From the IMG/VR virus record IMGVR_UViG_3300035208_006521, positions 17,413 to 81,412 of that record: DNA of 64,000 nucleotides. One strand, written 5' to 3'. Below the pieces are notes generated by a model. The model did not search any database. It saw nothing but the letters and a program-made list of their open reading frames with translations, and was not told the origin of the DNA. The stretch is from a virus. Taxonomy: Duplodnaviria > Caudoviricetes. A program made the translations under genes and the position numbers. Of the stretch, positions 21,248 through 38,239 are shown in pieces; the stretch's first letter is position 1; each line of letters opens with the position of its first letter.

Positions 21248-22630
21248 CTAAAACCAATCAAGGTTTGATGGGGATATATTGATGATCCTTACCTGTTGTT
21301 CTCTTTTCTTTAATCCCAATGCTCCAAAGAGTAACATCAAGAAGGGATAAACTGCCGCGTTTGTCGGATATAAATCGAATTTCATCATCGGCAAGAATTG
21401 TTCCCATTCTATCGCATCATACATTGGATTCAGATTCAATGCATACACTGTTGAAGTACCCGGTAAGTATGCGTTAGTGTCGGAAACAACCTGCGGAGAA
21501 CCTGTTCTTTTCGTCTGGAAGCATTTTTTATGTCCAGTTGTTTCTCCTTTTTTGGCTCTGTAAATTACCCAACCTGTGCCTGCTGTTGAACCATCTGTGA
21601 TGGTTATATCAACTTGTTCTCCCACACCTACTGCAATTTCTGAATTTGCTGAAGGTATAGATTCCCCGAATTTGTTAACAGCACATACTATATAGCTGTA
21701 TGTTCCTTCATCACCTGATCCAAACTCGGAAGATGTTCCGGATACTGCAAGGCTTATTGTTGGTGCAGAAGGCCTGGAAGCTACTATTACAGAAGCTCTT
21801 GGTACTGCTTTTTCCTGGATGAAGATATCATCTACCAGTTTAGGCGTCCCGAATGGAGTTGGATATTCTGTGAATATTGCTCCTCCTAGAACTTCTCTTT
21901 TTGCTTCAAAACGGATTCTGTTTCTCAAAAGAGCCTGAACGTCCTTCATTACCATTAAGGAGCAATAAAGATCGGTTATTATACCGAAGTTTGCTCTGAT
22001 GATTCTCGCTGCTTCCGTCATGGCTTCTTCGAATTCTGTTGTGTTGGCTGTTTTGCCTCTGAGGTCAATAACATTGACAGTGCCCTGTGAAGTCGGAGCT
22101 GCTGTAATGAGTTTATCTAATCCATCTGGCTGTTCTACTATTACATCAGAATCGCCATTGAATAGGATTTTTTCGACCTGTTTTATAATCCAGAGTGTGC
22201 CGGCCTGTTTTTCGAGTGCAACCGCATCTTCGATCATATTTGCTATCGAAGCCTGCAAGGTAACTTTCCTCAGAGTCTGCAAATATTTCATCAAGACGAA
22301 TGATCTTTCTATCGTCTGATCTTTTTCTACAGAATCACCACCTTCTGGAACCCATGCACCATCCTCGTCACCAACTTCTGTTCTCCTTACCCACTGATGA
22401 GCAACTGATTTGACGGGCTGCTTTTTAAGTGCTTTAAAAAGCTTTGCTTCATCCTGGCTCCAGAGAACGTTGACGAGAGTTGTATCCAGGGATTCAGGCT
22501 GAAGTGCACGCCCTCCTGTGAAAGAAGCAGCATCAACACCTGTGCCTCCTTCTAAGGCTTTTAAAAGGGAATCCATCATTTCTGAATTACCCTGGTGAAA
22601 ACCTTCACTTAAGTCTTTTAAAAGGTCCAT
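21248..22630 (-). CDS. Major capsid protein (Twort/SPO1-like)
   Basis: 460 aa. Contains GGRALQPESLDTTL, FNGDS...QPDGL, PFLMLLFGAL. Predicted maturation site LLK24-A25. Confidence 0.92.
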   Translation of the reverse strand: MDLLKDLSEGFHQGNSEMMDSLLKALEGGTGVDAASFTGGRALQPESLDTTLVNVLWSQDEAKLFKALKKQPVKSVAHQWVRRTEVGDEDGAWVPEGGDSVEKDQTIERSFVLMKYLQTLRKVTLQASIANMIEDAVALEKQAGTLWIIKQVEKILFNGDSDVIVEQPDGLDKLITAAPTSQGTVNVIDLRGKTANTTEFEEAMTEAARIIRANFGIITDLYCSLMVMKDVQALLRNRIRFEAKREVLGGAIFTEYPTPFGTPKLVDDIFIQEKAVPRASVIVASRPSAPTISLAVSGTSSEFGSGDEGTYSYIVCAVNKFGESIPSANSEIAVGVGEQVDITITDGSTAGTGWVIYRAKKGETTGHKKCFQTKRTGSPQVVSDTNAYLPGTSTVYALNLNPMYDAIEWEQFLPMMKFDLYPTNAAVYPFLMLLFGALGLKKREQQVRIINISPSNLDWF

Positions 22631-22649: not shown

Positions 22650-23360
22650 TTACATTAAAGTCATTACATCATTCGGCAGCGGAATACCTTTTTGTATTCT
22701 ACTTTCGAATTTGATGGAATCTTGAATACTTATTTTCCCTTCATTTACCAATTTAGGTAATTTTGAAAGGGCTTCTGATTTGGTCAGAGATGCTCTCTCT
22801 TCTCCGCCTTCAATGGATTTTCTCATTATCTGAATTTTATCCCCTAAAAGGCTTTTCCTGGGTAGAACTGTACCCCCAATAGCTTCCATTCTTGTGCTGA
22901 TTGATTTTACCAGCTTAGCCTGGGCTACTTCCATACCTTCTTTTTTCCTTAAAGATTTTCTCAAATCTTTAATTTCTTCTGCCTGATATACCATTGCTTT
23001 TGTCAAATCAGTTATCTGATCATCAAGCCTTCTTACCAGACTTTTTAAGAAAGGTGTCACTTCCAGAACATCAGAAGAATCCGGGTCGGAATTCAGACTG
23101 TCTTCGATGGATTTGGAAAGGGCTTCATATTCAGGCTCCCCTGATTTTTGATACTCTTCCTCTTCTTCATCATCTTCATCCTCGTCAAATTCTTCATCAT
23201 CTTCTTCGTTTTCATCTTCGTCGAAGTCTTTTTTGACAACTTTCTTTTTTTTCTTGTCAGCTTTAGAGAGGTCTTCTAAAGCCACATCCAGAGCCTTTTC
23301 CAGCTCTTCACTAGTGGCTTCTTCTAACTCTTCTCCAGCCAATTTCTTTAGTTTGTCCAT
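22650..23360 (-). CDS. Capsid scaffolding protein
   Basis: 236 aa between protease and MCP, with an acidic tract and many L-x-K-[AS] sites. Confidence 0.7.
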   Translation of the reverse strand: MDKLKKLAGEELEEATSEELEKALDVALEDLSKADKKKKKVVKKDFDEDENEEDDEEFDEDEDDEEEEEYQKSGEPEYEALSKSIEDSLNSDPDSSDVLEVTPFLKSLVRRLDDQITDLTKAMVYQAEEIKDLRKSLRKKEGMEVAQAKLVKSISTRMEAIGGTVLPRKSLLGDKIQIMRKSIEGGEERASLTKSEALSKLPKLVNEGKISIQDSIKFESRIQKGIPLPNDVMTLM

Positions 23361-23380: not shown

Positions 23381-24151
23381 TTAGTTTTTAAAAAGAAACT
23401 TTTGAACCATTAAATTTTTTAGTGGTTTATACAAATGAGTTGCTCCTTGAAATTCAAGGTAATCCTGAAAATCATCTTCGCTTCTTATATCCCCGCTTTT
23501 AATTCTCATCAGAAGTTCATTTATTACGGGCTGGACTTCAACATTGTTTGCTCCCTGTAGGCTTTCAGGACTTAACGCTCTACCCCCTGTAAACATGGAA
23601 GAATCAACTCCGGAACCTAACATCAGAGCTTTAGTAAAAGCTCCAAAAGGGATAAGACTCACTTTACCCAAAGTTGATGCATTTGTCGGTTTATAAGTGA
23701 CTGCTGTTTCATCCCATATAACCTGGGTTATCCCAGATAGGGCTTTATTCAATGATACCCTTTTCTTTACATAACCACCAATTGAAGCTCCTAGGCGAGA
23801 TGATTGAGCTTTTAGTAATCTTACAACCGCATCTGCAAATTCTACTCCTTTGTAAAGTTTGCCTTTTACAAATGTCCTGTTTTCCTTGAAACCTACGTCC
23901 TGTGGTTCACCTATTATATACTTTGGTGACTTTTCCAATTTATGTAAATGGTCCCAAGAAATAACTCCACCCTTCAAATAATCTTCAGCCTGTTCCTGTA
24001 ATGCTTTCATGAATACTATTTCCCTGGATTTATCTCTTTCCTCGTTTGAGGCTTCCAGAAATACAGTGTAAGCATCGTTGGGGTCTGACTTAATGATGAT
24101 TTGTCCCATTGGAGAATAAAAAGGGTCAAAGTTTTCTAGATTTTCTCTCAT
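23381..24151 (-). CDS. Prohead protease
   Basis: 256 aa. Contains ASNEERDKSREIV, ISWDHLH, LGASIGG, as in HK97/Twort-type prohead proteases. Confidence 0.85.
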   Translation of the reverse strand: MRENLENFDPFYSPMGQIIIKSDPNDAYTVFLEASNEERDKSREIVFMKALQEQAEDYLKGGVISWDHLHKLEKSPKYIIGEPQDVGFKENRTFVKGKLYKGVEFADAVVRLLKAQSSRLGASIGGYVKKRVSLNKALSGITQVIWDETAVTYKPTNASTLGKVSLIPFGAFTKALMLGSGVDSSMFTGGRALSPESLQGANNVEVQPVINELLMRIKSGDIRSEDDFQDYLEFQGATHLYKPLKNLMVQKFLFKN

Positions 24152-24453: not shown

Positions 24454-26016
24454 TTACCACTTATTCCCGTCCGGGTCGTTTCCCTTCATCCATTTTAAAC
24501 TTATCCCGTTGGCTATATCTTTCATAGTTCCAAAATCACTTGCGTCGCATTCACCTGCTTCGACATCGGTTTTATAGCCCTGGGCCAATGCCTTCATTGT
24601 TCCTTCATCCGTCTTTTTGAAAAATACTGTGAATCCTTTTTTGTTTGTTACAAGCAAATTGTTTCCATCCACTTCTACATCTTTAAAGCCCGCTTTTTTG
24701 AATTTATCACTAATATCTGTAATGCTGGTTTTTTTATCTTTTTCAGCTTTATCTTTTTTGGCAGGCATTTTTTTCGACCTGAGTTGGCTATCAGGATATT
24801 GGGGGTTGGATATAAATTTGTCATCTTTCTTTTTGTCTTGTTGCATAAATTCACTTGCATCCATCAACATAGCATTTAACACCATATCTTTTTCTTCTTT
24901 TAAAAAGTTTTCTTCGCCGCCATAAACCATTTTCATATACTTCCCAAAACTTACATCATCCACATCCATTGAATCCGGGTCTGTAAAAATTTCTAATAAC
25001 TCTTTCCTTTTATCCTCTGTACTCATGTTGTCAGATTTTCCTTCTTCTCCCGCATCTGAATAGAATTCTTTATATTCTTTTTCTACCTTTTTATCCGACC
25101 ATCCTCTTATTTTTGTCTCTTCTTCGGCCGCCGTCAATTCTTTTATGGCTTCTTTTTCATATTCTTTTAGATTTTTCGGTCTCCAGCCTGCTTTTAAGGC
25201 ATTCTGGATGCTTGATCTTTCTTCTTTACTTGCTTTTCCTGCTCCCAAAAATGAAGCCAATTCAATTCCGGACATACCTGATCCTTTCTTACTTAAACCA
25301 CTTCCATCAGCCCTGCCCTTACCAGGACCTGCACCTCTGCCATAAGGACCCGTTCCATCCCGTTTTTCTACGCCGAATTTTTTACTTTCTGTTTCTTTAC
25401 TACCGGATGTTCTTCCTTTTTTCTCCTTGTATACATATTTATAATTGCCCTTGGTACCTTCCCTGCGGAGATATTTTGCTTTTAGCATTTCTCCTTCTGA
25501 CATATTTTTTGTTCTGATTTTTAAAGCTTTTTTTAAGCTACTCAATTTATTCTCCCAATTTATCCCTGTGCTTATACTAGTCAGTTCTATCAATTTTAGA
25601 ACTTTTGCGACACGTCCTCTCCACGCATCCTTTCCATAAGTTTCATCTAACCTATTTTTTAGATATCTCTTCCACTTATCCTCAAAATGATTATCCACAA
25701 GATTTTTATAACCATGTCTTACATATGCTGGCAGACTTTTGAATTCTTCGGAAGCCATAACACCCTGGGCTACTTTTCTCATGGCCATTACTTTGCTCCC
25801 AAAATCTTCTTCATATTGACGGTCACTATCACCATTCCCCTTATTTCTAGTCCCAACCCTGTTGGCGGTATTTTTTTGTTCTTTGATATCCTCTTTTGAT
25901 AAATGTTTTTCTCCCGATCCCTTATAAGTATACTTATAATGACCAGGTCCACCTTCTCTCTTGATATATTTAGCTTTTAATAATCTCTCCTCTAAAGCCT
26001 CTTTTAAGTTATTCAT
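24454..26016 (-). CDS. Putative internal head (cargo) protein with two leader/module-B copies
   Basis: 520 aa. Contains LLKA-KYIKREGGPGHYKYTY and an internal MLKA-KYLRREGTKGNYKYVY. Confidence 0.7.
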   Translation of the reverse strand: MNNLKEALEERLLKAKYIKREGGPGHYKYTYKGSGEKHLSKEDIKEQKNTANRVGTRNKGNGDSDRQYEEDFGSKVMAMRKVAQGVMASEEFKSLPAYVRHGYKNLVDNHFEDKWKRYLKNRLDETYGKDAWRGRVAKVLKLIELTSISTGINWENKLSSLKKALKIRTKNMSEGEMLKAKYLRREGTKGNYKYVYKEKKGRTSGSKETESKKFGVEKRDGTGPYGRGAGPGKGRADGSGLSKKGSGMSGIELASFLGAGKASKEERSSIQNALKAGWRPKNLKEYEKEAIKELTAAEEETKIRGWSDKKVEKEYKEFYSDAGEEGKSDNMSTEDKRKELLEIFTDPDSMDVDDVSFGKYMKMVYGGEENFLKEEKDMVLNAMLMDASEFMQQDKKKDDKFISNPQYPDSQLRSKKMPAKKDKAEKDKKTSITDISDKFKKAGFKDVEVDGNNLLVTNKKGFTVFFKKTDEGTMKALAQGYKTDVEAGECDASDFGTMKDIANGISLKWMKGNDPDGNKW

Positions 26017-26354
26017 TCTGTTTCTCCTAAATGGTTTAATTTGGCGGCTTCAACAGATTCGGAAGCCATATTGATAGTATTCTCTAACAATGATCTATCA
26101 TGTAACAACTTCATATAACTGAATTTTTTATCCTCATATTCTTCATCCATTTCTTTGCCTGAAGTATAAGGCTCTAATTCTCTTCCCTTTTTTTCTATCC
26201 TACCTTTTAATATTTTCAAATGCTTCTGGGCAGCTTCCATTATTGCTTCTTGTTCTTTTATTATCCCCCTTATATAAACTTTTCCTTTTGCATAAGCATT
26301 ATTGAGTTTGTTTATATCTTTCTCTGTTATTCTTTTTGTTGATTGTAAGTTCAT
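26013..26354 (-). CDS. Hypothetical helical protein
   Basis: 113 aa, translationally coupled on both sides. Confidence 0.65.
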   Translation of the reverse strand: MNLQSTKRITEKDINKLNNAYAKGKVYIRGIIKEQEAIMEAAQKHLKILKGRIEKKGRELEPYTSGKEMDEEYEDKKFSYMKLLHDRSLLENTINMASESVEAAKLNHLGETE

Positions 26355-28111
26355 TTGTTTTCTTCCTTTGCAAATTTTTTATAAAATCTTATTTCACTAC
26401 CCATTTTGGAATAATCATACCATTCTCCTGTATGATAATCCATTGCTTTTTTATCCCGCTTTATTTTAATTTTCGTATTTGCCAAGGGCCCGTGTTCAAA
26501 TTCAATTATATCCCCCACTTTCGGATCAGAGTCGTGGAGTTTGAATATAGGTGTTTCTTTTCCGGGTTTTGCTTCCTCCGCATAAACCTGTACCCAGTCA
26601 TCATTATAATCCCCAGTCTGTTGGGTATATATATTTGTCAGCTTGTCTAACCCTTTTTGTTTTATATAGCTTCTTACCCATGCTTCTGCTGATTTTTCAG
26701 ACGTACTCTTGAATGTAAAAGCCATACTACCTTCTCCGGCGTCTATATAATCGGGTATATTGCTTCTTGGTACTCTATCACTATCGCCTCTTTTTTGATA
26801 GTCATCATTAGCATACTGGGAATAATCCGTCTTTTTAGATTCTTTCTTCGATTCTGTTTTAACTACTAGCTTAGGCTGTTCGATTGGTGCTGGGGTTAAA
26901 TTATTTATATCCCTGTTTTCTGAATTGAATTCACCCAACTCTATAGAACCATAACCTCCACCGCCCATTACTTTAGAAGGTGGGGTTAATTCCTTAACAC
27001 TAAACCCACTTCCTCTTAAATCATTAACGATTGAATTAAATCTATCGGTTGATATACCGTGAAATCCTATCCTTTTGGGGTTATATTTATCTATTTCATA
27101 ACTATTGCCGGAAGAATGTGTCCAGCCTCTTATAGCGGTCCCCGTGACTTTAGTCACTTCCAGTCCATATTTATGAAATATATCCTTTGCGAGTTTCAGA
27201 TTCAAATCTTCGTACTTCATTTTTCTCTCGAATTTTTCAAGCTCTCTCCTGGCATTTTCAAAAACTTTTAATCCTTGTTTTTTTCTTCTTGCTGGAATTT
27301 CCATATAAAATTTCCGGGCACTTTCTATTCTATCATTAAGCATTTTCCTTTGTCTTTCCCTTTCATCTTCGCCTGTCTTTTTTATCACTAGTTTTTTTTC
27401 TTTTGGTTTTTGTATGTCGCCTGCAGCCGGTACTCCAATCTGGGGTGTTGCTTGATAATTACTTATATATTCCCTTGCCTTTACATACTGGGTTCCTTCA
27501 GGTCCTAGCATTATCTCTTTTGCTTTTTCTACTCCCATTTCTTTCACATATTCATGGAAATTTTCTTTCGCTTTTTTGACTGCTTCTATTTCCCTCTGAC
27601 TGAGTGACTTTTTTTCAGCTAATTCATCGATTTTACTTTGGTAATATTCAACTCTTTCCCATGCATGTTTTTTATTATCTTCTGTTTCCCCGGTATCATT
27701 TGCTATGTTCCTGAAATGTTCTTTCTTTTCTTCCCATGGTTTTATCTGTTCATCGAAAGAAAGTTCTTTTGACGCTAAATTTGCTTCAGTCCATCCTGCA
27801 AGCCATTCTTTCATCATCCCTGCGGAGCTACTTCCTACTTTTTTACCTTTTATCTGTTCCATCAAATCATAATCTCTGGCAGGAATTGCCATTTTTCCTT
27901 CCTTAAATGCTTTTCTACCCATTTCCCTGGCTTGCTGGGTTGATATATTCTTTGTTGTACCCTGTTCCTTCTTGTCACTACCGGTTTTCGCTTTTTGTCC
28001 TGCTTTACCGACATATTTCCATCCAGTGGCAGTTTTCTGATATTTTCTACCACTATATTCTTTTATTGTTCCGTTGGGTACTGCTTTTGCTTTTAATAAT
28101 ATGAGTCTCAT
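26351..28111 (-). CDS. Putative internal head (cargo) multidomain protein
   Basis: 586 aa. Leader MRLILLKA-KAVPNGTIKEYSGRKYQKTATGW. Confidence 0.7.
   Translation of the reverse strand: MRLILLKAKAVPNGTIKEYSGRKYQKTATGWKYVGKAGQKAKTGSDKKEQGTTKNISTQQAREMGRKAFKEGKMAIPARDYDLMEQIKGKKVGSSSAGMMKEWLAGWTEANLASKELSFDEQIKPWEEKKEHFRNIANDTGETEDNKKHAWERVEYYQSKIDELAEKKSLSQREIEAVKKAKENFHEYVKEMGVEKAKEIMLGPEGTQYVKAREYISNYQATPQIGVPAAGDIQKPKEKKLVIKKTGEDERERQRKMLNDRIESARKFYMEIPARRKKQGLKVFENARRELEKFERKMKYEDLNLKLAKDIFHKYGLEVTKVTGTAIRGWTHSSGNSYEIDKYNPKRIGFHGISTDRFNSIVNDLRGSGFSVKELTPPSKVMGGGGYGSIELGEFNSENRDINNLTPAPIEQPKLVVKTESKKESKKTDYSQYANDDYQKRGDSDRVPRSNIPDYIDAGEGSMAFTFKSTSEKSAEAWVRSYIKQKGLDKLTNIYTQQTGDYNDDWVQVYAEEAKPGKETPIFKLHDSDPKVGDIIEFEHGPLANTKIKIKRDKKAMDYHTGEWYDYSKMGSEIRFYKKFAKEENK
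28080..28103. repeat. 24-bp direct repeat copy 1 (ACTGCTTTTGCTTTTAATAATATG), encodes ILLKAKAV
   Basis: Identical to 30433-30456. Confidence 0.9.
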
Positions 28112-28172
28112 GTTTTCCTCACATAAATTTTCTTATCCTGCTACTACATCCAATTCTTCTCAAAAAATTCTT

Positions 28173-28475
28173 TCAAATTTTTTGCTTCACCTTTTCCGGG
28201 TTTTTACTCTTTGTTGCAGCCTTCTTTTTTCTATCTGACAATATCTTATTTGCTTTATATTCATTCTGGAACATCTTCGCTTCCTGTTTTACTTTTGCTG
28301 AGGGTTTATAGGTCTTTGTTTTGCTTTTTGCTTTGCTTTTTCTTCCGCTAGGAACAAACACCCAACCATTCTTTGTTTTTTTGTACTTCTTACCGCTGTA
28401 AGTTTTCACCGTACCAATGGCAAGTTTTTCGGCTTTCATAAGCCTGTCAAGTAAAGCTTCTTTCAAATTGTTCAT
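28173..28475 (-). CDS. Small basic putative internal head protein
   Basis: 100 aa. Leader MNNLKEALLDRLMKA-EKLAIGTVKTYSGKKYKKTKNGW. Confidence 0.7.
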   Translation of the reverse strand: MNNLKEALLDRLMKAEKLAIGTVKTYSGKKYKKTKNGWVFVPSGRKSKAKSKTKTYKPSAKVKQEAKMFQNEYKANKILSDRKKKAATKSKNPEKVKQKI

Positions 28476-28744
28476 TTTATTTCTCCTTTTTTTATTACAA
28501 GTTTTGTTTCTTTTAATAATCTCCTAGGATTATCTTTTACTACTTCTATCAACTTATTACTTCCGTTATCAAACTTACACTCTACCACTGCTTCTATATC
28601 GCCCCCTGAAGCAAATCCTGCAAAGTATTTACAATCTCTGCAATTGTTATCATAGAATTCTACACCCCATTCAACCAGCTCATTATTCTTTCTACAATAT
28701 ATCCTACCCATAGAATCCGGTATCATTTGAAATGTTGTTTTCAT
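28472..28744 (-). CDS. Hypothetical protein with CxxC
   Basis: 90 aa, with an upstream RBS and a promoter-like element. Confidence 0.6.
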   Translation of the reverse strand: MKTTFQMIPDSMGRIYCRKNNELVEWGVEFYDNNCRDCKYFAGFASGGDIEAVVECKFDNGSNKLIEVVKDNPRRLLKETKLVIKKGEIK

Positions 28745-28756
28745 TTTCTTTCCCCT

Positions 28757-28785
28757 ATATTATATCCCTTTTGTTAAATTGTAAA
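28757..28785 (-). promoter_or_regulatory. Putative promoter GTTTACA ... TATAAT/TAATAT
   Basis: Intergenic. Spacer is 15 nt to TATAAT or 17 nt to TAATAT. Confidence 0.4.
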
Positions 28786-28790
28786 CCTTT

Positions 28791-30467
28791 TTATTTATTC
28801 AACCATTCATTATCTATTTCTTGAACTTTATCCCTGGTTCTTTCTATATCTATCCACAACATCGGCAATACTGCTTTTGGATTTTTGACACAAAATTCAT
28901 CATTAAGTAATCTGCCTTGTCCTTTTTTTGCATATACTGTATCGTGCCCATTTGGAAGGTTATGATCGGAATATTTAACATTGCCCATGGCTGCTTTGCA
29001 TACAAACATTACTCCCCTGTCATCACTTCTGCCATAATCCCCTGCATATTGGATCGACTTAGAGCTTACATCCGTCAAATATATACCATCTCCCAACATT
29101 CTACCTGTTCTGGCTTTTCTTAATTCAAAACCCCCTTTTGCTATCTTTGATGCATTCTCGAAAGTTGTAGCATGGTATCCTATCTTCACATTACCTTTTT
29201 CTTTTTCTATTGACTTCCATTTTTCATAATAACCGGCTTCTTCTATCTTGTATATACCTTTTATTCTAAAACCAAATCCTCCATGCTGTGTCTTGTCAAA
29301 ACTATTTTTTAGATATTCGAGTACTCTCTGACATCTACCTCTATCAAGGCTTCTCAATGCTATTTTCTGGGAGTATTCTCTACCTTCCCTTGAAAGTTTC
29401 TTTCTTATTGCTTTCTGTGAAGCTTCAGACATACCCCCAATTCTTTTATCCATTATCATTTTTTCCATAACCGAATTTGTATATGAAGGTGATCTATTAG
29501 CCATAGTCATAATATCATAAACTTCTTTTGAGGTTAGTAATGGAGTTTGTTGTTTTTTTTCTTTGTTTGCTTTACTATAAAGTGTTGAATTTAATTTAAA
29601 AGTACTATACAGAGCGGCCAATTTGTTGGCCGCATCCTTATCCATATTTTTGCCTTTTTCTCTATTCTTCCTCCATTTCTTCGTAAAATTTCTAAATTCC
29701 CTTTCCGAGTTTAACGCCTCATTTCCCATTTCATTGGCCTTTCTTTGCCATTCTGCTTCTTCTGGAGTTGGGTTTTCTCTTATTAGTTTATGTTCATCTT
29801 TCGCTTTTTCCCTTTTTTCTGTCCATTCTTTATAAAGAATGTCATCACCTTTCATTCTTGCTTCATTCTGTTCTGCGGCCAATGTTTCTATTCTCTCATA
29901 AAATTCATCACCCCTTCGACTTGCATTTTTTTCATATTCACTTTTCTTTTCATAGACTTCTTTTAAATTTTCTGCACGCCCTGTAAAACCTCTTTTAAAA
30001 TCTTCATCTAAACCATCAAAAATATCAATTCTATCTTTATAATTTTTCAACCAACTATCAACAGCTCCCCATATAACCATAAAACTACTCATTTTTTTGA
30101 GATTGAATCTCTCAAAATCCAAAGAACATTCCCTAACCGCTCTTTTTATATATTTGGGGGCTTCCTGAGAAGGTTCAAATATATGCAATTGATCTGATAC
30201 ATATTCCTCGGCTTTTCTATCGAGACATTTTATACCCGTGGTTTCCATTATTTCTTTTGCTTTGGGCGAGAGTTCTTTTGTTGTCTTATCCATTGCTGGC
30301 TTAGTTGCAACGTTTGTTTGTATTGCTGTTATATCTTTGGTCACTTGCTTATCACCTTTGCCATGAAACTTCCAGCCATTGGCTGTCTTGATATAATCTC
30401 TGCCACTATATGTCTTTATTGTTCCAATTGGCACTGCTTTTGCTTTTAATAATATGGCCAATTTCAT
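28791..30467 (-). CDS. Cargo-leader protein with C-terminal PARP-like ADP-ribosyltransferase (H-Y-E)
   Basis: 558 aa. Contains GYHAT, GRMLGDGIYLTDVSSKSIQY, GVMFVCKAAMG, LLNDEFCV. Confidence 0.85.
   Translation of the reverse strand: MKLAILLKAKAVPIGTIKTYSGRDYIKTANGWKFHGKGDKQVTKDITAIQTNVATKPAMDKTTKELSPKAKEIMETTGIKCLDRKAEEYVSDQLHIFEPSQEAPKYIKRAVRECSLDFERFNLKKMSSFMVIWGAVDSWLKNYKDRIDIFDGLDEDFKRGFTGRAENLKEVYEKKSEYEKNASRRGDEFYERIETLAAEQNEARMKGDDILYKEWTEKREKAKDEHKLIRENPTPEEAEWQRKANEMGNEALNSEREFRNFTKKWRKNREKGKNMDKDAANKLAALYSTFKLNSTLYSKANKEKKQQTPLLTSKEVYDIMTMANRSPSYTNSVMEKMIMDKRIGGMSEASQKAIRKKLSREGREYSQKIALRSLDRGRCQRVLEYLKNSFDKTQHGGFGFRIKGIYKIEEAGYYEKWKSIEKEKGNVKIGYHATTFENASKIAKGGFELRKARTGRMLGDGIYLTDVSSKSIQYAGDYGRSDDRGVMFVCKAAMGNVKYSDHNLPNGHDTVYAKKGQGRLLNDEFCVKNPKAVLPMLWIDIERTRDKVQEIDNEWLNK
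30433..30456. repeat. 24-bp direct repeat copy 2
   Basis: Identical to 28080-28103. Confidence 0.9.
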
Positions 30468-30468
30468 T

Positions 30469-31146
30469 CTATAACTCCTTCAAATATTTTTCCGGGTAAT
30501 GATCTAGCGGATTGCCTACTATCTTCAACCATGGGAGCAATAATAATTCCCAACCAAAAGTTGCTCCTAGTCTTAATGTCTTGCTTATATGCATAAAACC
30601 CATCCATAATGTTGGGACTTTTGTTACCATGTCTTCTTTATATACAAATCTTCTGGAAATTATTCTTCTTCTCCTAAAATCTCTTACAAATGATCTATTA
30701 CCCACTCTTGGAGAACCAAAAGTGATACAGATCACTTCCTTGCCCCCTGCAGTTATCATGGAATAGAAATAAGCATGAAGAACCGCAAGGGCTGCCCCTA
30801 AACTATGGCCCGTAAAGATAACACTTTCTTTACCCCTTTTGATTATTTTTTCGAATACTTCTATTTTTGAAACTTGATACTGTCTAAAAAAACCTTCATG
30901 AACTTTTATCCTTTTTTCGGTTGTTCTTATCTTCTTGAAATTCAAATTATCATACCAATCAAGCTTGCCATGAGAGCCCTGGAAGACAACTACTGTATGT
31001 TTTCCGTAATCTCCTATCATGTATTCTGTGTGTCCTATTTTACAAACTTCAACATTTTCCATAACTTCTTTGACTTTTCCATGATGGCCGTTATAAGAAT
31101 TTACGCATGCCTGGCACATATTCCTTATTGTCATTGCTGTTAACAT
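30469..31146 (-). CDS. Class 3 lipase (alpha/beta hydrolase)
   Basis: 225 aa. Contains VVFQGS..DW, VHEGF, TGHSLG, TFGSPRVGN, DMVTKVP and C-terminal DHY. Confidence 0.9.
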   Translation of the reverse strand: MLTAMTIRNMCQACVNSYNGHHGKVKEVMENVEVCKIGHTEYMIGDYGKHTVVVFQGSHGKLDWYDNLNFKKIRTTEKRIKVHEGFFRQYQVSKIEVFEKIIKRGKESVIFTGHSLGAALAVLHAYFYSMITAGGKEVICITFGSPRVGNRSFVRDFRRRRIISRRFVYKEDMVTKVPTLWMGFMHISKTLRLGATFGWELLLLPWLKIVGNPLDHYPEKYLKEL

Positions 31147-31220
31147 AAGCTTTTTCTCCTTTTAAACTATAGTTTTTTACAATTTTACGTTGCACGTACC
31201 AATGCACGCCAGCTGTGTTT

Positions 31221-32180
31221 CTACATCTTTAATATCTTTATTAGCTTTGAAATTGTTGTTTTAGCATCAGAATGTTTTACACCAACACCCCCTGCATGCT
31301 CCCATTTTTTGAGATTTTTATCCATATCATCAATCAGTATATTCCCATTGCCTGCATATTTCTCTTTATTGTGATCTATTATAATTTCTATTCCTTTACC
31401 TATGTTTTTATGTATCCAGAATTTTTTATCTTCCTTATAATCTTTTACTTGGGCTGTTGATGTTAATATCTTCACTATATACCCTTTGTTCTTTAATTCT
31501 GCTAAATAACCCCATAACTTCAATGCATCTTTTTTTCTGGGCATACTACGCCACCAATGAGGTTTCGATTTTATTCTTGCAAAGATATCATCAGAGTTTT
31601 TATCATCATCAGGATGTATCCCAAAAGATGATATATAATGAGCATCAAAATCAGATAATACCCCATCACAATCACAATATATTTTCGGTTTAATTATATC
31701 CGATTTTATAAATAATCTCATACCCGACTTTTTTAACCTCTTCTCAAAATCTACACCTTTTACAACTACATCATGGATATATTTACCATCTTTTATAACT
31801 ATCTCTTCTTCCATATTTTCAAATTCATTATTTCTGTCTAGAGTATCTTCAAAGGATATACCTTCTTTGCCTATAGTTGCTGAAATAACCACTCCATCTT
31901 CTCCGGCAAAATCATCAGCTATTGAAAAATTAGTAGTCCAGCTTATACCTGGATTATTAACATCTATATCTGTATCTTTTGAACCTCTATATATTTTAAG
32001 TGGAAATTTTAAGTTATCCACAAAATCATTACCTGTATTTTTAAAACTTTCTGTTTCGTTGGAAGTTTTTGTTTTGGCATTATTTATTCTTCTCCACTTC
32101 CCTTCAGAAACTTTTTTATACTTGCCATGAATAGTTCCTACTGGTACTTTTCTTGCTTTTATCATGACTACTAGTTTCAT
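31221..32180 (-). CDS. Cargo-leader + ART-like domain + HAD 5'(3')-deoxyribonucleotidase fusion
   Basis: 319 aa. Contains IYRG...GISWT...EEEIVI, then YCDCDGVLSDF...ILT...ILIDD. Confidence 0.75.
   Translation of the reverse strand: MKLVVMIKARKVPVGTIHGKYKKVSEGKWRRINNAKTKTSNETESFKNTGNDFVDNLKFPLKIYRGSKDTDIDVNNPGISWTTNFSIADDFAGEDGVVISATIGKEGISFEDTLDRNNEFENMEEEIVIKDGKYIHDVVVKGVDFEKRLKKSGMRLFIKSDIIKPKIYCDCDGVLSDFDAHYISSFGIHPDDDKNSDDIFARIKSKPHWWRSMPRKKDALKLWGYLAELKNKGYIVKILTSTAQVKDYKEDKKFWIHKNIGKGIEIIIDHNKEKYAGNGNILIDDMDKNLKKWEHAGGVGVKHSDAKTTISKLIKILKM
31682..31707. repeat. 26-bp direct repeat copy 1 (TTTTCGGTTTAATTATATCCGATTTT), encodes KSDIIKPK
   Basis: Identical to 32870-32895. Confidence 0.92.
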
Positions 32181-32181
32181 A

Positions 32182-32382
32182 TTATGCTACCTTTAACTTT
32201 CTTCCATTTAATTTGCCTTCTTTCTTTGCTAATTTTTCCATTGCTATCAGCCAATCATAATAATCTGGAATCTCATCCAAATGGTCTTTAGCAATCAATT
32301 CAGCTTCAGCATCATCGCTTGTGTGTTCTCTTTCAATCTTTATACCAAGCTTTAATTGTCTGGGGTCGTATTTCTTTTCCAT
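32182..32382 (-). CDS. DUF5661-like small protein
   Basis: Contains QLKLGIKIEREHT...IAKDHLDEIPDYY. RBS before ATG 32382. Confidence 0.7.
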   Translation of the reverse strand: MEKKYDPRQLKLGIKIEREHTSDDAEAELIAKDHLDEIPDYYDWLIAMEKLAKKEGKLNGRKLKVA

Positions 32383-32401
32383 TTTTATTCTCCTATATAA
32401 A

Positions 32402-32918
32402 TTAAGCAAGAAATAATTCACTACCTTCACTTCTTGCCATTGGGTGCTTATTTGCTTCTGTTGTCTCTTCTATCTCTTTCATTTTGTCTTCTATTTCTTT
32501 CGAACTTCTTTTCTTAGTTTTATTTCCAAGCCACTTTTCTCTTTTTTCTTCAAGTTCTTCTTCTACTTTTGATGTATCTTTATCAGGCCTGCTATCCAAT
32601 CCATCTTTTAACCTTTTGCTCCTTTCAATTGGTGGCTGGTATGTACCTTTTATTATTCTTTCCAGACCTATGAACTCTCTGGGTAATTCACTAAACATAA
32701 ATTCTTCTTGTGTCTTTATTAAATCACCCATTCTCATTGCAATGGCTTTTTGTATTGCTACACCTCTACCTTTCTTTTCGCTTTCTATTGAGTTCAATAT
32801 CCTTGCCAATCCAGTTTCATCATGGGCTGCTATATCATCTATACTGCCAAGGATATTCATTTCTTTTTCTTTTCGGTTTAATTATATCCGATTTTCTTAA
32901 TCTAATTATTAACTTCAT
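32402..32918 (-). pseudogene. Leader MKLIIRLRKSDIIKPK joined out of frame to a 152-aa ORF (32402-32860) that resembles the helicase C-terminus
   Basis: ATG 32918 overlaps the upstream stop (TAATG). The leader frame stops at 32835. The +1 frame reads RKEKEMNILG...HDETGLARILNSIE. Confidence 0.6.
32870..32895. repeat. 26-bp direct repeat copy 2
   Basis: Identical to 31682-31707. Confidence 0.92.
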
Positions 32919-33367
32919 TATGCTGTCATTCTCTTATCTGGGTAATGTCTTTCCATCGTGCTTACGAATCTACTATAAACTGCCCTTGCCATTTGTTTGT
33001 CCGGCATGTTCAGATTTACTAACTTTTTAACATAATTATATGCGTCATCATGTGAAGCACCTGCCACTTTTTTCTTTCTGAAAACTTTAAACATTAAATC
33101 TTCATGGGCTGAATACTCTCTATCTACTGTTTTGTTTTCCCCTGTCTTACCTGTTACTCCTATTTCAGCCCCCTTTCTTTCAGGCTTTTCATCAGCCGAG
33201 CCTTTCTTGCTTCCAACGGGCTCTTTGTATATGTATTTGTTACCCTCCTTTCTTATATATTTAGCTTTTAGAAGACTTTCCCTTAAATCTTTTCTCATTG
33301 CTTTCTCAAGACTTTCAGTCCAGTTGATTCTTTCACATAATGCTTTTTCCAACTTATTCATATCCAA
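32918..33367 (-). CDS. Putative internal head protein
   Basis: 149 aa. Contains LEKA, LEKA, then LLKA-KYIRKEGNKYIYKE. Confidence 0.7.
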   Translation of the reverse strand: MDMNKLEKALCERINWTESLEKAMRKDLRESLLKAKYIRKEGNKYIYKEPVGSKKGSADEKPERKGAEIGVTGKTGENKTVDREYSAHEDLMFKVFRKKKVAGASHDDAYNYVKKLVNLNMPDKQMARAVYSRFVSTMERHYPDKRMTA

Positions 33368-33391
33368 TCTCCTTTTTTCATTTTTTGCTTC

Positions 33392-33691
33392 CTATTTTCT
33401 GACAACTAACTTCTTATATTCTTTAACGCCTTTTTTGTAAAGCTCTTTTTCTTCCGGGGCTATTTCTAATAAAAGTCCTTGTAATTCCCCAACATGCACT
33501 ACTTCTTCATCCGAAATAGACTTAAGTGTTTTCTTTGCCTTATCATTACTTATTGATTCAGCCAATTGCATGTATAGTTGTATAGCTTCATACTCCGCGG
33601 CTATTGCAAATCTTATTGCTCTTATTGTCTCTTCTTTTGTGAGCTTTCTATCTGCTTTCATACCTGAGAATGGGTTTTCAAATTTTGGCAT
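33392..33691 (-). CDS. Ferritin-like (rubrerythrin / encapsulin-cargo-type) protein
   Basis: 99 aa. Contains IRAIRFAIAAEYEAIQLY...ISDEEVVHVGE (ExxAxxxY / EExxH di-iron pattern). Confidence 0.8.
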   Translation of the reverse strand: MPKFENPFSGMKADRKLTKEETIRAIRFAIAAEYEAIQLYMQLAESISNDKAKKTLKSISDEEVVHVGELQGLLLEIAPEEKELYKKGVKEYKKLVVRK

Positions 33692-33703
33692 ATTATTTCT
33701 CCT

Positions 33704-36700
33704 TTATATCATTACTCTTTCTTTTAAATCTTCCGATCTTCCATCTATTTCTCTCATGTGTCTTTCCATACAATCAGGGCACATTCTACCAACCACACTC
33801 TGTGCATCATAATTTTCAAATCTCTCTGGAATATCATTCACCCATTTATCATCCTCCCTATATTTTTTGCATACTCTACATTGATATAATACTTCTCTTC
33901 CACTTTCAAGTTCTTTCTTCTTAATGTGTGGAGTTGTATCCAGATTATCTTCCAATTCCATTGCATTCTTTTTTGTTACATCTTTTGCTTTTTGAAATGG
34001 TGATTCCTTATATATTGATCTATCTTCCCAAATGGCTTTTTCCAGTGATTGTAATAATGATTCGGCTGCGGATATTTCATCAACTTTTCTACCCAATCTT
34101 TCCAGCGCTATTGTTAGTGCCTTTTTCATTGCTTTACCTGGTGCCCCTTTTTCCTTTTCTATTGAATTTAATATCCCGAGCAAACCTGTTTCATCATGCC
34201 CTTCTATTTCTCTTGGGTTACCTAGTATATCCATTTCCCTTTCCTTTCTATCTAGGATATCCCTTTTACTCATATCAAAGGGAGAATTACTTTCCAAAAC
34301 ATAAGTTGCTACATCCTTATTTTGACCCTTTCTAAATATTCTTTTATTCCTTTGGTCAAATGATGCAAAGGTGGGTGGAATATCATAATGAAATGTTACT
34401 GTACCCCCAAACTGAAGATTATGCCCAGCTTCTAGAGACTTGGTTCCTATTATGAATCTTACTTTTGATTCTGGGTTATTAAATTCAGCTTTTGCCGAGT
34501 CAGCTTCTTTTTTCGCTGTGTCGCCATTTATGGCTACAACACTACCTTTTCCATATTTGGCTTCCAGGGTTGTTTTAATCGTATCCATTGCTTTTCTACC
34601 CTGTAAATGTATGACCGCTTTTTCTCCTTTATGATCATTTTCCATTATATCAAGTATTTTCTGAGCTTTGGAATTATTTTGTGGGTCCCCATTATGGAGT
34701 ATTTGATAATTTCTCGCGTCTCTTCTACTTGCTGCCCCTATTTTTTCTCCTTCATTTGCCCTTTCCTGGGCATATTTGGCTTCCGATTCTTTATATGCTT
34801 TTCTTTGTGCTTTTGTTAAATCTACTTTTATCCTCTTTATGTTATTTTTCACCGGCAATTGAGTCCTCTGTGAATATACCCATTGACCTATTTCTCTCCT
34901 AAACGCGTCATTTGCACCTTCCTGCACTGCTGTTGTACCTTGATTTAATCCTTCATATCTTCTTTCAAAATCTTTCATACTACCGAGTGTATGATTTGGG
35001 TCCACAAAATCTATTTTCTTCCACAATTCCCTTTTTGAATTTTTTATGTTTGTTCCTGTCATTGCTATCTTATAAGGGATTATTTTACCCAATGATTGTA
35101 ATCCTTTCATTCTACCCGAGGATTCATCGCTTGCATAATTTGGATTTGTTAACTCATGAGCTTCATCTACTACCATCATATCAAAGCCAGCTTTTTCCAA
35201 TAGTTCTTTATCTGTTCTTAATTGGTCATGACCTATGATTATTATTCCATCTTTTTTATAATTTTGCTCTCTTTGTTTTGGTCCCTTATCATTTAAAGTC
35301 ACAAGTTTTTGTCTATCCGGTGTTAAAAACTTCTCCCTTTCCTGAAAGAATTGGCTTCTTAATTTTGCAGGTGTTACTACTAAACATTTTTTAGCCCCTT
35401 TATTATTCATTGCTTCCAGACAGGCTGCATATCCTAGTGGAGTTTTACCTATACCTGCTTCAAAATCTAATACTGCTTTACCCGTTTCTTTAAAGAATCT
35501 CAAACCAGCTTCCTGGGAAGCATCTAGCTTTATTTTACTTTGCATACCCTCTGGTTTATATCCATCATTCATTTTATGGGCTTTTATCTTTTCTATTATA
35601 TTTTCTTTCTCCCTCGCCTTGACATTTGTATTAAAGAATTTACCTAGACTATCTTTTGGTATTTCCATTACTATTCTTTTATCTTTAGTTTTCAAAGAAT
35701 AATCATCCCTACCAAGTCCCATTATTCTCGCTTTCTTTCTAGCTTCAAATAAATCATGACCCATATCTACCTGGACGGAATCTACCGGTCCTTCTTCCAA
35801 TGCATTTATTAAGTGAGCTGTTGCTCTTAAACTACCTACTGCTGAACCTAAATTCTTTTGGCCAGCTACGAGTTGTCTCAATGCATACCCATTAGCCGAA
35901 GCTTTAGAAAGTATTGCTTCTACGTCATCACTATCTTCGGCTAATTTTCTTATCTCATCCGCATTTGCAAATCTTTCCTCGGATTCTTTTAATGCTTTAT
36001 CAACTACCTTCATATTATTTTCTTTTGCAAATCTGTGAAGGGCTTCTTTCACTTCCTCTGTTCTACCATCAGCATGTATTTTAGCTGCCACTATCCTGGA
36101 ACAAGATTCTATTCCCATCGTTTGAATAACATCTTGATTAAATATTCCTTTTACCTTGAATATATCACCACCTACTCCATTTAGTGTTGCTAAACCACCT
36201 TCATCTATATGCTTTTGGGCTGCTAATCCTTGTGCATTCAACTTCTCATACAATTGCACGTTCTTTTGTGTTTCAACGTGTTGCTTTACTTCTTTAACTA
36301 TATCATCATCAATGCTACTTGAATCTTCCGCAAATGTTGTACCTATTTTAATCTCTGGTTCTTCTCCAATTCTACCCCTGGTAATATCTTTTAACTTTTG
36401 ACGAAATTCTCTCCTTGCTTTTAATATTTCTTTTGCCTTTTCCACGTTCAAAAGGTCCTGCATATTTTGTTTCTTATCTGGTGGTATTTCATCTCCAAAA
36501 TAATCTGTTGCTAGTGCGTTTAATGCCCTTGATTCTAATTGCTTTATCTTTTTTTCTTCCATTCTTACCCTGGCGGCTTCTTCTTCTTTTTTATATTCTT
36601 CGGGTTTTTCTTCCATCAACTTGGCTATTTTTTCTTCACCTACTTTATTCTTTTTGGCCATTCTTTTCTTCGCAACTTCACTTATCTCTTCCAGGTCTTT

Positions 36701-37780
36701 GGTTGTTAATATCGTTTTGTATTCCTCGCCCATTATCGTTTTCACTTTTTCTTCATAGGAGGCTCTTTCTCCTTTCTTGGCTTCTATCTCTTCCTTCTTC
36801 AGCTTGGTTTGTTCTTTTCTTTCTTCTGGGGTTATGTCCTTTAGCTTGGCTTCTTTCTTCTCCTTGAGTTGCTTTCTATACTCATCTTCTGGTAACAATT
36901 TATCGATCTTGAAGTGGTTTAATTTACCGCCTGCACCTCCTACTACCACATAACCTCCTTCTTCTACCCCTTGCACCAATACGTGTTGTCCCCTTACTGT
37001 CACCCATCTCAATCCCTTTCCTTTGAGGTCTTCTTTTTTATAATGCTCTTTGTCTGACTTCCTCATCTCCATATCCGGGCCGGATATCTTACCCTTCTTG
37101 CTCTTTACCTTGCTCTTGAAGTCATCTATCTTGAACTCTTCCATACTACCAAAGAATTTTTCTGGGTTGTCATAATGATCACAATATGCTTTCTTCGCTT
37201 CTTTATCATTATTAAATCCCAACATCACTTTATCTTCATCGTATTTCCCTGTTAGTGGATTATTCTGATGTATTACATATACCCTTTTACTTTCTTCATC
37301 TTCTCCTATGAAGCAATCTACGCAATCTCCGTCAGCCCCTTCCGTTAGTCTTATGTACCCATATGGTATTTTCATCTTTGTTTTCCATTCGTTACCATCT
37401 GGGTCTTTTCCTCTTCTTATACTGCCAGGTTTATTTTCTATACTTATATCCATGCCCTGGAATTTTCTTTTACCTTGTAATTTGTAGTTTGCCTTTTCCA
37501 TATTCTCAAAATGATTTTTTAACAGGTAATAATTCTCTATGGAAAATTCTCGCACATCCAAGTCCTCAACACCAGGGCACAAAAAAGAGAGCTCAACGGC
37601 TTTTTTCATAAGACCTAAATCTACCGTTGAGCTTTTATTCATACCGCTATATATACTGTTTACTAACTTCCAGAAGCTTTCATCTTCTTCCGTATAATTT
37701 GGATACTGCCTATGTACTATCTTTTTGGCTTTATCCCACTTCTTTTCGTCTTGCTTATCTTTTACTAATCCTTTTGGCAT
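33704..37780 (-). CDS. Polyvalent protein: InPase-like domain, coiled coil, SNF2/SF2 helicase, C-terminal Zn finger
   Basis: 1358 aa. Contains ISIEN..GSIRRG...YGYI..TEGADGD.VDCFIG...DEDKVMLGF; FEAGIGKT; VVDEAH; MTGT; LEAGHNLQ; QRNKRIFRKGQ; CxxC...CxxC. Confidence 0.85.
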   Translation of the reverse strand: MPKGLVKDKQDEKKWDKAKKIVHRQYPNYTEEDESFWKLVNSIYSGMNKSSTVDLGLMKKAVELSFLCPGVEDLDVREFSIENYYLLKNHFENMEKANYKLQGKRKFQGMDISIENKPGSIRRGKDPDGNEWKTKMKIPYGYIRLTEGADGDCVDCFIGEDEESKRVYVIHQNNPLTGKYDEDKVMLGFNNDKEAKKAYCDHYDNPEKFFGSMEEFKIDDFKSKVKSKKGKISGPDMEMRKSDKEHYKKEDLKGKGLRWVTVRGQHVLVQGVEEGGYVVVGGAGGKLNHFKIDKLLPEDEYRKQLKEKKEAKLKDITPEERKEQTKLKKEEIEAKKGERASYEEKVKTIMGEEYKTILTTKDLEEISEVAKKRMAKKNKVGEEKIAKLMEEKPEEYKKEEEAARVRMEEKKIKQLESRALNALATDYFGDEIPPDKKQNMQDLLNVEKAKEILKARREFRQKLKDITRGRIGEEPEIKIGTTFAEDSSSIDDDIVKEVKQHVETQKNVQLYEKLNAQGLAAQKHIDEGGLATLNGVGGDIFKVKGIFNQDVIQTMGIESCSRIVAAKIHADGRTEEVKEALHRFAKENNMKVVDKALKESEERFANADEIRKLAEDSDDVEAILSKASANGYALRQLVAGQKNLGSAVGSLRATAHLINALEEGPVDSVQVDMGHDLFEARKKARIMGLGRDDYSLKTKDKRIVMEIPKDSLGKFFNTNVKAREKENIIEKIKAHKMNDGYKPEGMQSKIKLDASQEAGLRFFKETGKAVLDFEAGIGKTPLGYAACLEAMNNKGAKKCLVVTPAKLRSQFFQEREKFLTPDRQKLVTLNDKGPKQREQNYKKDGIIIIGHDQLRTDKELLEKAGFDMMVVDEAHELTNPNYASDESSGRMKGLQSLGKIIPYKIAMTGTNIKNSKRELWKKIDFVDPNHTLGSMKDFERRYEGLNQGTTAVQEGANDAFRREIGQWVYSQRTQLPVKNNIKRIKVDLTKAQRKAYKESEAKYAQERANEGEKIGAASRRDARNYQILHNGDPQNNSKAQKILDIMENDHKGEKAVIHLQGRKAMDTIKTTLEAKYGKGSVVAINGDTAKKEADSAKAEFNNPESKVRFIIGTKSLEAGHNLQFGGTVTFHYDIPPTFASFDQRNKRIFRKGQNKDVATYVLESNSPFDMSKRDILDRKEREMDILGNPREIEGHDETGLLGILNSIEKEKGAPGKAMKKALTIALERLGRKVDEISAAESLLQSLEKAIWEDRSIYKESPFQKAKDVTKKNAMELEDNLDTTPHIKKKELESGREVLYQCRVCKKYREDDKWVNDIPERFENYDAQSVVGRMCPDCMERHMREIDGRSEDLKERVMI

Positions 37781-37801: not shown

Positions 37802-38011
37802 TTACTCATTTCTTACTATACCCGCATTTGCCCACATTATACATTCTTCCAGCTTAGTTAACGCTATAGATTTTTCTCTTGATTGTGGGACTTTTTCGTC
37901 TATCATTGTTGCTAATACTTTTCCTTCCTTTCTTATCATCTTTAATTGGTCTATTTTATATCTATCTGGTTCATGATAAGTAAAATTATTTTCTATCTGT
38001 GGATTGTGCAT
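37802..38011 (-). CDS. Acb2/Tad1-hairpin-like putative immune-signal sponge
   Basis: 69 aa. Contains FTYH..., SREKSIALTKLEECIMWANAGI. Confidence 0.65.
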   Translation of the reverse strand: MHNPQIENNFTYHEPDRYKIDQLKMIRKEGKVLATMIDEKVPQSREKSIALTKLEECIMWANAGIVRNE

Positions 38012-38023
38012 TTGCTATCTCTC

Positions 38024-38239
38024 TTATTTTTTTAGAATATCCTCTTTTATATAAAGAGGATATCCATTAAGTCTTCCGGCCAAAAAGAATATATCATATT
38101 CCAACTCTATGGGCGACGAGTCTATTTCCTCTACTACCATAGGTGTATATTGCGGTCTCACAAACTTTAGAAAAGGACCTTCGATATTTCCCACCGCCAT
38201 CATTTTTATTCTTCTACCGTTGTCAACTAATACTTCCAT
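38024..38239 (-). CDS. Hypothetical protein
   Basis: 71 aa ORF in the co-oriented operon. Confidence 0.55.
   Translation of the reverse strand: MEVLVDNGRRIKMMAVGNIEGPFLKFVRPQYTPMVVEEIDSSPIELEYDIFFLAGRLNGYPLYIKEDILKK

Follow-up and report, generated by a model that had tools for sequence, protein, structure and literature searches.

We analysed a 64-kb stretch of phage DNA (64,000 nucleotides, hereafter the window) from the Caudoviricetes record IMGVR_UViG_3300035208_006521, and focused on an array of genes just upstream of its prohead protease gene. Seven open reading frames (ORFs) between the gene for a protein with InPase and SNF2 domains and the protease gene begin with a leader ending in hydrophobic-x-K-A/S, with the predicted cut after the lysine. 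One of two small modules follows the leader, tag A in four ORFs and tag B in two, ahead of a payload that varies from gene to gene. These patterns suggest that the array probably encodes capsid-internal cargo carrying a cut-and-tag label, which would serve both cargo proteins and cargo polyproteins. An earlier reading of the same DNA (the original prediction) had proposed an N-terminal address label; by our analysis, the label looks as much like a grammar for processing polyproteins, because 80% of the copies of the unit lie inside long proteins.

The putative cut site in head proteins

The major capsid protein of the window (460 residues; 21248..22630; PHROG 752, E = 1e-63) aligns over its full length with SPO1 Gp6.1 (E = 9e-36) and with the capsid protein of Staphylococcus phage phi812 (E = 3e-18). 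The full-length phi812 chain (Protein Data Bank (PDB) entry 5lii, 463 residues) reads V-V-K24-S25, and a 439-residue chain (9row) begins exactly at S25; from the chain lengths, we infer that this start is the mature phi812 N-terminus. Aligned with K24-S25 are L-L-K24-A25 in the window protein and L-N-K-A in SPO1, so that the predicted propeptide comprises residues 1-24 (22559-22630) and ends at L-L-K before A25. In agreement with this reading, about 23 residues are removed from the N-terminus of Twort-like and A511 capsid proteins. We examined 120 capsid homologues among those listed, of which 97 carry a TGGxAL anchor. L-x-K-A precedes the anchor in all 97, and in 92 it lies 13 residues ahead. 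The capsid gene, like the scaffold, protease and array genes described below, is on the minus strand, which carries nearly all genes.

The motif [LIFMV]-x-K-[GAS] was counted in each of 108 ORFs of the genome and compared with 300 composition-preserving shuffles. The scaffolding protein (10 sites vs 1.5 expected, z = 7.5), the protease (8 vs 1.6) and the protein encoded after the portal gene (7 vs 1.5) were the richest, with a 5-7-fold enrichment for scaffold and protease. The scaffold (236 residues; 22650..23360; PHROG 15087) has a net charge of -21, with a 40-residue stretch at -23, and its ten L-x-K-S/A/G sites are regularly spaced, as expected of a scaffold that is degraded. The motif is also frequent in other scaffolds, with 10 and 12 sites in related contigs and 7 in the cultured phage Touem01. 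The post-portal protein (350 residues; 46325..47377, minus strand), whose gene directly follows the portal gene, starts with a 7-residue leader ending L-L-K before S, and six of its seven sites fall in the first 102 residues. It is MuF-like by a C-terminal Cys/His motif only and has no Pfam match.

The prohead protease (256 residues; 23381..24151; PHROG 1028, E = 6e-17) has the invariant His68 and Ser123. Its C-terminal tail (23552-23641) copies the capsid cut site and N-arm (22490-22570) almost residue by residue, with K-A-L, G-V-D, F-T-G-G-R-A-L and P-E-S-L shared in that order. The mimic is conserved in six of nine aligned proteases, with a truncated copy in a seventh, and it probably shows how the protease itself is built into the prohead. 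Our literature searches did not find an experimental statement of this protease's specificity. Because the K-A/S junction aligns with the phi812 boundary, recurs in all 97 anchor-bearing homologues and is enriched in scaffold and protease, the leaders of the array are probably prohead-protease propeptides, and the K-A/K-S dipeptide is probably the prohead-protease site of this capsid lineage.

An array of labelled open reading frames

The original prediction placed leaders and modules on the ORFs starting at 26016, 28475, 28111, 30467, 32180 and 33367, and these coordinates were confirmed; all six leaders end in hydrophobic-x-K-A. The ORFs at 26016 and 28475 share an amphipathic leader of the M-N-N-L-K type, of which the ORF at 33367 has a longer relative, and short hydrophobic leaders of the form M-K/R-L-h-h-h-K-A (h, hydrophobic) begin those at 28111, 30467 and 32180. 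An M-D/N-x(1,2)-L/N-K start occurs in only 5 of 110 ORFs, namely the capsid and scaffold genes and the three cargo ORFs with helical leaders.

Four ORFs carry tag A. The 586-residue cargo candidate (26351..28111; leader 28091-28111, tag A 28004-28090) has no payload assignment. The 100-residue protein (28173..28475; leader 28434-28475, tag A 28350-28433) ends in a Lys-rich tail and has a net charge of +15 over the 50 residues following the cut. The 558-residue candidate (28791..30467; leader 30444-30467, tag A 30357-30443) matches the tag-A profile described below at E = 1.4e-17 and contains a PARP catalytic domain (28893-29330; Pfam E = 2e-19). In the 319-residue two-part protein (31221..32180), the leader (32157-32180) and a shortened tag A (32082-32156) are followed by a domain without assignment, then by an internal leader-like site (31683-31721, M-R-L-F-I-K-S) just before an NT5C/HAD nucleotidase domain (PHROG E = 4e-28). 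The PARP and HAD payloads were thus identified as originally proposed. An ADP-ribosyltransferase (ART) domain, also proposed for the 319-residue protein, was not supported by Pfam even at E <= 1.

Tag B follows the leader in two ORFs. The 520-residue cargo candidate (24454..26016; leader 25975-26016, tag B 25921-25974) has a second, internal cut site and tag B at 25423-25503, with M-L-K-A before the tag; its AlphaFold2 (AF2) model places a helix at residues 2-16 and a hairpin at residues 17-31 with low to moderate confidence. The 149-residue protein (32918..33367) has a long helical leader with three sites (33266-33367) and tag B at 33224-33265.

The leader once assigned to a cargo protein at 32918 is really a 27-codon orphan ORF (32838..32918), out of frame with the next gene. 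A frameshift fusion of the two would need a +1 shift, and we found nothing in support of it. The orphan ORF shares a 32-nucleotide direct repeat (94%; 32870-32901 and 31682-31713) with the internal leader of the 319-residue gene. This repeat resembles a scar or substrate of cassette exchange with a span of 1188 bp. The leader and tag segments themselves are DNA repeats (101 nucleotides at 77% identity, and three 46-nucleotide copies), a pattern that fits exchange of the label-coding segments by recombination.

A six-frame scan of the whole 81.4-kb genome, of which the window is a part, confined the module patterns to the array, with a B-like copy in a 548-residue protein as the sole exception. 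Short hydrophobic N-termini starting M-K/R-L are also found in secretion and lipoprotein signal peptides, and we considered whether the leaders are such signals or reflect chance or low-complexity similarity. Either is very improbable: the leaders have just 4-6 hydrophobic residues and then a highly charged segment, where a signal peptide has a hydrophobic core of about 10 or more residues and a signal-peptidase site, the unit also lies hundreds of residues inside proteins with matches down to E = 1e-27, and the module patterns are missing from other frames and the rest of the genome. Both were excluded by the six-frame scan, the profile search and the copy positions.

The gene upstream of the labelled ORFs encodes a 1358-residue polyvalent protein (33704..37780), in which Pfam assigned InPase (37103-37504) and SNF2 helicase (34325-35518) domains. 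Polyvalent proteins combine at least two effector domains per polypeptide, here InPase and SNF2, and smaller ORFs of the window are solo versions. The original prediction noted K-A/K-S sites in this protein, and it does carry 15 cut-motif sites vs 8.2 expected. It was also said to have no leader, but it has its own conserved N-terminal module of 49 residues (37634-37780) that ends M-N-K before S. This MPxG module (M-P-x-G ... D-E-x-x-W-x-K/R-A-K ...) has no Pfam model and is also present on PARP, GNAT and SNF2 proteins and on a small protein of relatives, with copies in contigs L004 (18814-19008), L005 (4014-4208), L008 (3573-3767) and L009 (7828-8022). The window, L008 and L004 copies extend to an h-x-K-S/A site.

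Spread and structure of the label

We built a profile hidden Markov model of leader plus tag A from the four window copies and two from contig L002 and searched it exhaustively against 1.84 billion proteins. Matches included 499 cluster representatives at E <= 1e-3 and 39 at E <= 1e-10, with the strongest between E = 1e-12 and 1e-27. The original prediction had anticipated a range of attached payloads, and the unit does occur on a range of unrelated ones. Many carriers are 1000-2500 residues long and have 2-7 copies. They are polyvalent proteins of the type described by Iyer and co-workers, with ART-PolyVal, RadC, DUF5661, SNF2, UvrD (with an intein), ParB and GNAT domains; one carrier came from a Leptospira genome.

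The best 150 of the 499 were re-scanned for copy statistics. There were 270 copies of tag A in 146 proteins, 48 N-terminal, 6 C-terminal and 216 internal (80%), at a median distance of 275 residues. Shared leaders upstream of the protease, found also in eight related contigs, agree with the idea of an N-terminal address label; the predominance of internal copies points as much to polyprotein processing. Encapsulin-type loading peptides are C-terminal, and the tags are N-terminal or internal, with 6 of 270 copies near the C-terminus.

With the Gly of the G-T pair set as position 0 (the anchor, 100%), the logo of these copies shows L/I/F at -9 (67%), K at -7 (76%), G/A/S at -6 (82%), K/R at -5 (81%), P at -2 (81%), I/V at -1 (81%), T at +1 (82%) and I/V at +2 (83%); beyond these come an aromatic residue, K, G and W. 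By these alignments, leader and module A are one conserved unit of about 45 residues, made up of an amphipathic or hydrophobic stretch, the putative cut site and a small predicted beta domain. They are not the separate, interchangeable labels first described.

AF2, run with a 33-sequence alignment, modelled residues 16-33 of tag A, as carried by the 586-residue protein, as a three-stranded antiparallel meander (predicted local distance difference test (pLDDT) about 92). The K-A-K segment is unstructured and lies ahead of the meander, so that the conserved K, G/A and K/R fall outside the confidently folded part. Tag B is always preceded by h-x-K-A-K and recurs inside ART-PolyVal, GNAT and ADP-ribosyltransferase proteins; its model, a helix and a hairpin, is of moderate to low confidence. 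Pfam has a model for neither tag. A Foldseek search of the PDB with the tag-A model returned nothing significant; the top match, to a 34-residue chain in the phiKZ capsid structure 8y6v, had E = 1.2, and we did not rely on it.

The tags could instead be small nucleic-acid- or protein-binding mini-domains that include the K-A/G-K residues, carried by ordinary cytoplasmic enzymes that are neither packaged nor cut and are encoded in an accessory-gene hot spot. The tags are rich in Lys/Arg and aromatic residues, like small DNA-binding beta domains, their copies are mostly internal, and unlabelled accessory genes (the lipase and Acb2/Tad1 genes described below) share the interval. Nevertheless, we consider this explanation unlikely. 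The h-x-K-A/S element also stands ahead of tag-less sequence, in leader-only ORFs of contigs L002-L004 and at the site before the HAD domain, and in the capsid alignment it falls on the maturation site. Scaffold and protease, both without a tag, are strongly enriched in it, and the folded part of the tag does not include its conserved K, G/A and K/R. On the downstream side of the capsid gene, moreover, no tag was seen in any of 83 ORFs.

The tags have net charges of +4 to +15 over the 50 residues following the cut. This basic character, set against the very acidic scaffold, would also suit a unit that targets the prohead by binding scaffold, capsid protein or portal without being cleaved, its likeness to a cut site being coincidental, and the N4 virion RNA polymerase is among the packaged proteins that escape processing (PMC5512222). 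However, uncleaved targeting leaves unexplained why the three residues before the tag match a site found ten times in the scaffold and why the same site ends tag-less leaders, and we think it quite improbable.

Linkage to head genes in related contigs

In all four metagenomic contigs that include the head-gene region, the order is portal, tagged proteins, protease, scaffold, capsid; a fifth contig is cut at its end. Payloads in the four are SAM lyase, poly(A)-polymerase-like, PARP, GNAT and helicase proteins, with a Tad2-like gene nearby. Four more contigs, found through their capsid genes, have PI3/PI4-kinase-like, ADP-ribosyl exotoxin-like and SAM lyase payloads behind hydrophobic M-R-L-type or helical M-E-K-L-type leaders and tag A or B. 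The order portal, MuF-like gene, array, protease, scaffold, capsid is shared by the window and contigs L002-L005 and L008-L011. The PI3/PI4-kinase-like proteins with leader and tag B (L009 3434-5152 and L010 715-4013) are an unusual phage payload.

The original prediction was to be abandoned if the motifs lacked linkage to head genes. Across the nine loci, tags mark 24 of the 98 ORFs in the 14.5 kb upstream of the protease vs 4 of 158 elsewhere (Fisher p = 6e-8), and ORFs with an N-terminal site number 39 of 98 vs 22 of 158 (p = 4e-6). The four tagged ORFs elsewhere all lie further upstream. In the eight related contigs, the unit is restricted to the upstream side of the protease-scaffold-capsid genes.

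The sole cultured carrier that we found is the myovirus Chryseobacterium phage MA9V-3, which has tag A in five proteins encoded between its portal and protease genes. One of these is AAA-ATPase-like with the tag at its N-terminus, and another is a Nudix protein with the tag at its C-terminus. Tagged genes of MA9V-3 lie at L001 3379-5016, 5683-6129, 6371-7933 and 14001-14708, with two or more copies of the tag in 6371-7933. tblastn searches gave no match for tag B or for either of two tag-A proteins.

Proposed mechanism and points against it

Head-maturation proteases act within assembled proheads, as established for T4 gp21 and the HK97 family. Because of this, the conserved site on unrelated N-termini and at multi-domain junctions suggests co-assembly, trimming and cutting. 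Each labelled protein would begin with a propeptide, which in some is a run of 5-8 residues, most of them hydrophobic, and in others an amphipathic helix with the same M-D/N-x-L-K start as the capsid and scaffold proteins. The end of the propeptide would be formed by the motif that the prohead protease of this phage cuts, [LIFMV]-x-K before A, S or G. Behind the cut would come a small, strongly basic beta tag (the meander of A or the hairpin of B), a Lys/Gly-rich linker and a variable enzyme. Labelled proteins would be co-assembled into the prohead and their leaders trimmed there, and internal units would allow a long protein to be cut into domain-sized pieces with a tag on each new N-terminus. 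The freed enzymes would exit together with the DNA and be active soon after entry into the next cell, like T4 Alt and the T4 internal proteins.

The removed leader and the retained tag probably have different roles. The tag may first bind the scaffold, which is very acidic, and then the DNA, and the helical leaders that resemble capsid and scaffold N-termini may be the true targeting element, as in T4. The payload types, together with analogy to T4 Alt, P1 Dar and the Iyer model (PMC5512222, PMC9024508), are our grounds for proposing injection and early action against the host. The payloads and their neighbours (Acb2/Tad1 and Tad2-like genes) fit early anti-host or anti-defence roles. More tentatively, the label may be a general and portable grammar in which the prohead protease, rather than their own metallopeptidases, cuts polyvalent polyproteins, and in which the tag holds an enzyme on the acidic scaffold and, once the scaffold has been degraded, on the incoming DNA, with which the enzyme would exit the head; we consider this broader version doubtful.

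Several observations weigh against packaging and cutting. A full site lies just upstream of 251 of the 270 tag-A copies vs 7.7% of random windows in the same proteins, a figure that is partly circular in that the search profile contained the site columns. The motif was also defined after the tag logo had been viewed, array proteins overall are only mildly enriched in sites, and the conserved K-G/A-K/R could serve the tag's own function and not cleavage. A single homologous capsid protein and the chain limits chosen by PDB depositors are the basis for the cut position. Touem01, the closest cultured capsid relative, has the same site yet no tagged array, and we found no published virion proteomics for MA9V-3. 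Within the window, about 8 kb of nucleotide-metabolism genes separate the array from the portal gene, and the array includes genes without label, namely those for a lipase, a DUF5661 protein, a ferritin-like protein and three small ORFs.

Comparison with known systems

In T4, internal proteins IPI-III and Alt carry a capsid-targeting sequence that is removed by the gp21 prohead protease (Mullaney and Black 1996; PMC3012670, PMC9026906). The window resembles this system in having short N-terminal leaders on unrelated head-linked proteins that end in a protease site, with scaffold proteins that have the leader's features and with a proposed route of head loading for injection. It differs in that the leaders end h-x-K before A/S, whereas the T4 gp21 rule is L/I-x-E, and in a capsid of the SPO1/Twort/Felix-like branch. 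In addition, a conserved basic beta tag would stay on the product, and most copies are internal, which makes their carriers predicted polyproteins. Although it would work like T4 capsid targeting, its different cut rule and capsid lineage place the system outside the T4 family.

Polyvalent proteins were predicted to be packaged and injected, and the paper that described them proposes that a metallopeptidase (MPTase) built into the protein does the processing (Iyer, Burroughs, Anand, de Souza and Aravind 2017; PMC5512222). Their domains (InPase, SNF2, ART-PolyVal, DUF5661, RadC, ParB, GNAT and PARP-type ARTs) and their portal/head neighbourhood are those seen here. Term searches of PMC5512222 turned up neither a recurrent junction unit nor an N-terminal leader nor processing by the prohead protease, and our wider literature searches did not find a description of these labels.

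In the phiKZ-like and SPN3US giant phages, the head protease likewise cuts many head-internal proteins at a simple motif ahead of ejection (PMC5694885, PMC7411985, PMC10052503), but these phages use the T4-type Glu rule, have no shared tag after the cut and differ in capsid lineage and genome size. P1 packages and injects the anti-defence enzymes DarA, DarB and Hdf, including a helicase-type polyvalent protein (PMC9024508, PMC12810830). Incorporation of the Dar proteins is hierarchical and partner-dependent, however, and a common cut-and-tag label is not known there.

Outside T4, P1 and the phiKZ-like phages, the loading of diverse enzymes and the separation of polyvalent parts are mostly conjecture. 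An h-x-K-A/S site followed by tag A or B provides a searchable and testable rule for a large clade of uncultured myoviruses (260 capsid clusters and 499 tag-bearing clusters). If the rule is true, injected repertoires would be predictable from sequence, with SAM lyase, PARP and other ADP-ribosyltransferases, kinase-like enzymes and helicases among them, and would provide a shortlist of candidate anti-defence enzymes that act ahead of phage gene expression. The short, portable label may also be a tool for loading foreign proteins into HK97-fold capsids. These findings extend the T4 capsid-targeting and polyvalent-protein ideas and overturn no concept; their interest is in breadth and direct testability.

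Genome context and clade

The window is part of a single 81.4-kb contig with a terminal overlap of about 100 bp, and the contig is therefore probably a complete phage genome. In the order of transcription, the genes encode terminase, portal, the post-portal protein, about 8 kb of metabolism and small genes, Acb2/Tad1, InPase-SNF2, the array, protease, scaffold, capsid and tail. The large terminase is at 49000-50862 and the portal at 47387-48928. The protease-scaffold-capsid block runs from 24151 down to 21248, and the tail genes that follow include a sheath gene, which identifies the phage as a myovirus.

A blastn search of the head genes against 50,697 phage records gave no match, i.e. no close cultured relative, and a search of IMG/VR for related loci using the protease found no relative. 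The capsid protein matches 458 phage records, the best at 30% identity, from Felix-like and SPO1/Twort-like myoviruses. We also found 260 clusters of metagenomic capsid homologues with 53-77% identity on contigs of 77-97 kb, and by these comparisons the phage belongs to a large uncultured clade.

The interval of about 8 kb at 38000-46300 (minus strand), between the portal/MuF-like genes and the cargo array, is occupied by small ORFs and genes of nucleotide metabolism, among them an ORF at 41569-42213 of the P-loop (kinase-like) type. In the related contigs, the array directly follows the portal gene without this insertion.

Two unlabelled genes of the array have recognizable domains. One encodes a class-3 lipase of 225 residues (30469..31146; Pfam E = 1e-24) without leader, tag or site. 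The other, at 33392-33691, encodes a 99-residue ferritin-like protein (Rubrerythrin E = 1e-5; EncFtn-like E = 1e-3, below the Pfam cut-off). A ferritin-like protein among the putative cargo of an HK97-fold shell recalls encapsulin cargo, yet it has no label.

The 548-residue protein with the B-like copy is encoded at 14055-15701 of the genome contig (L007 2056-3702, minus strand), 1.7 kb before the window start and at the end of the late operon. Its N-terminus has I-K-S followed by a tag-B-like hairpin motif. The protein has no Pfam match at E <= 0.01, and a PDB sequence search gave nothing better than E = 0.55.

A 152-residue ORF (32402-32860, minus strand) duplicates the C-terminal tail of the SNF2 protein (33929-34234), with 36% identity over 104 residues (E = 1e-10). 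The ORF and the tail copy both start M-D/N-I-L-G.

Directly upstream of the SNF2 gene, at 37802-38011 (minus strand), is the gene for a 69-residue protein with an Acb2/Tad1 hairpin domain (Pfam E = 6e-18) and without leader or site. This protein is a probable sponge against CBASS or Thoeris signalling. Contig L003 has its Tad2-like gene at the position equivalent to that of the window's Acb2/Tad1 gene.

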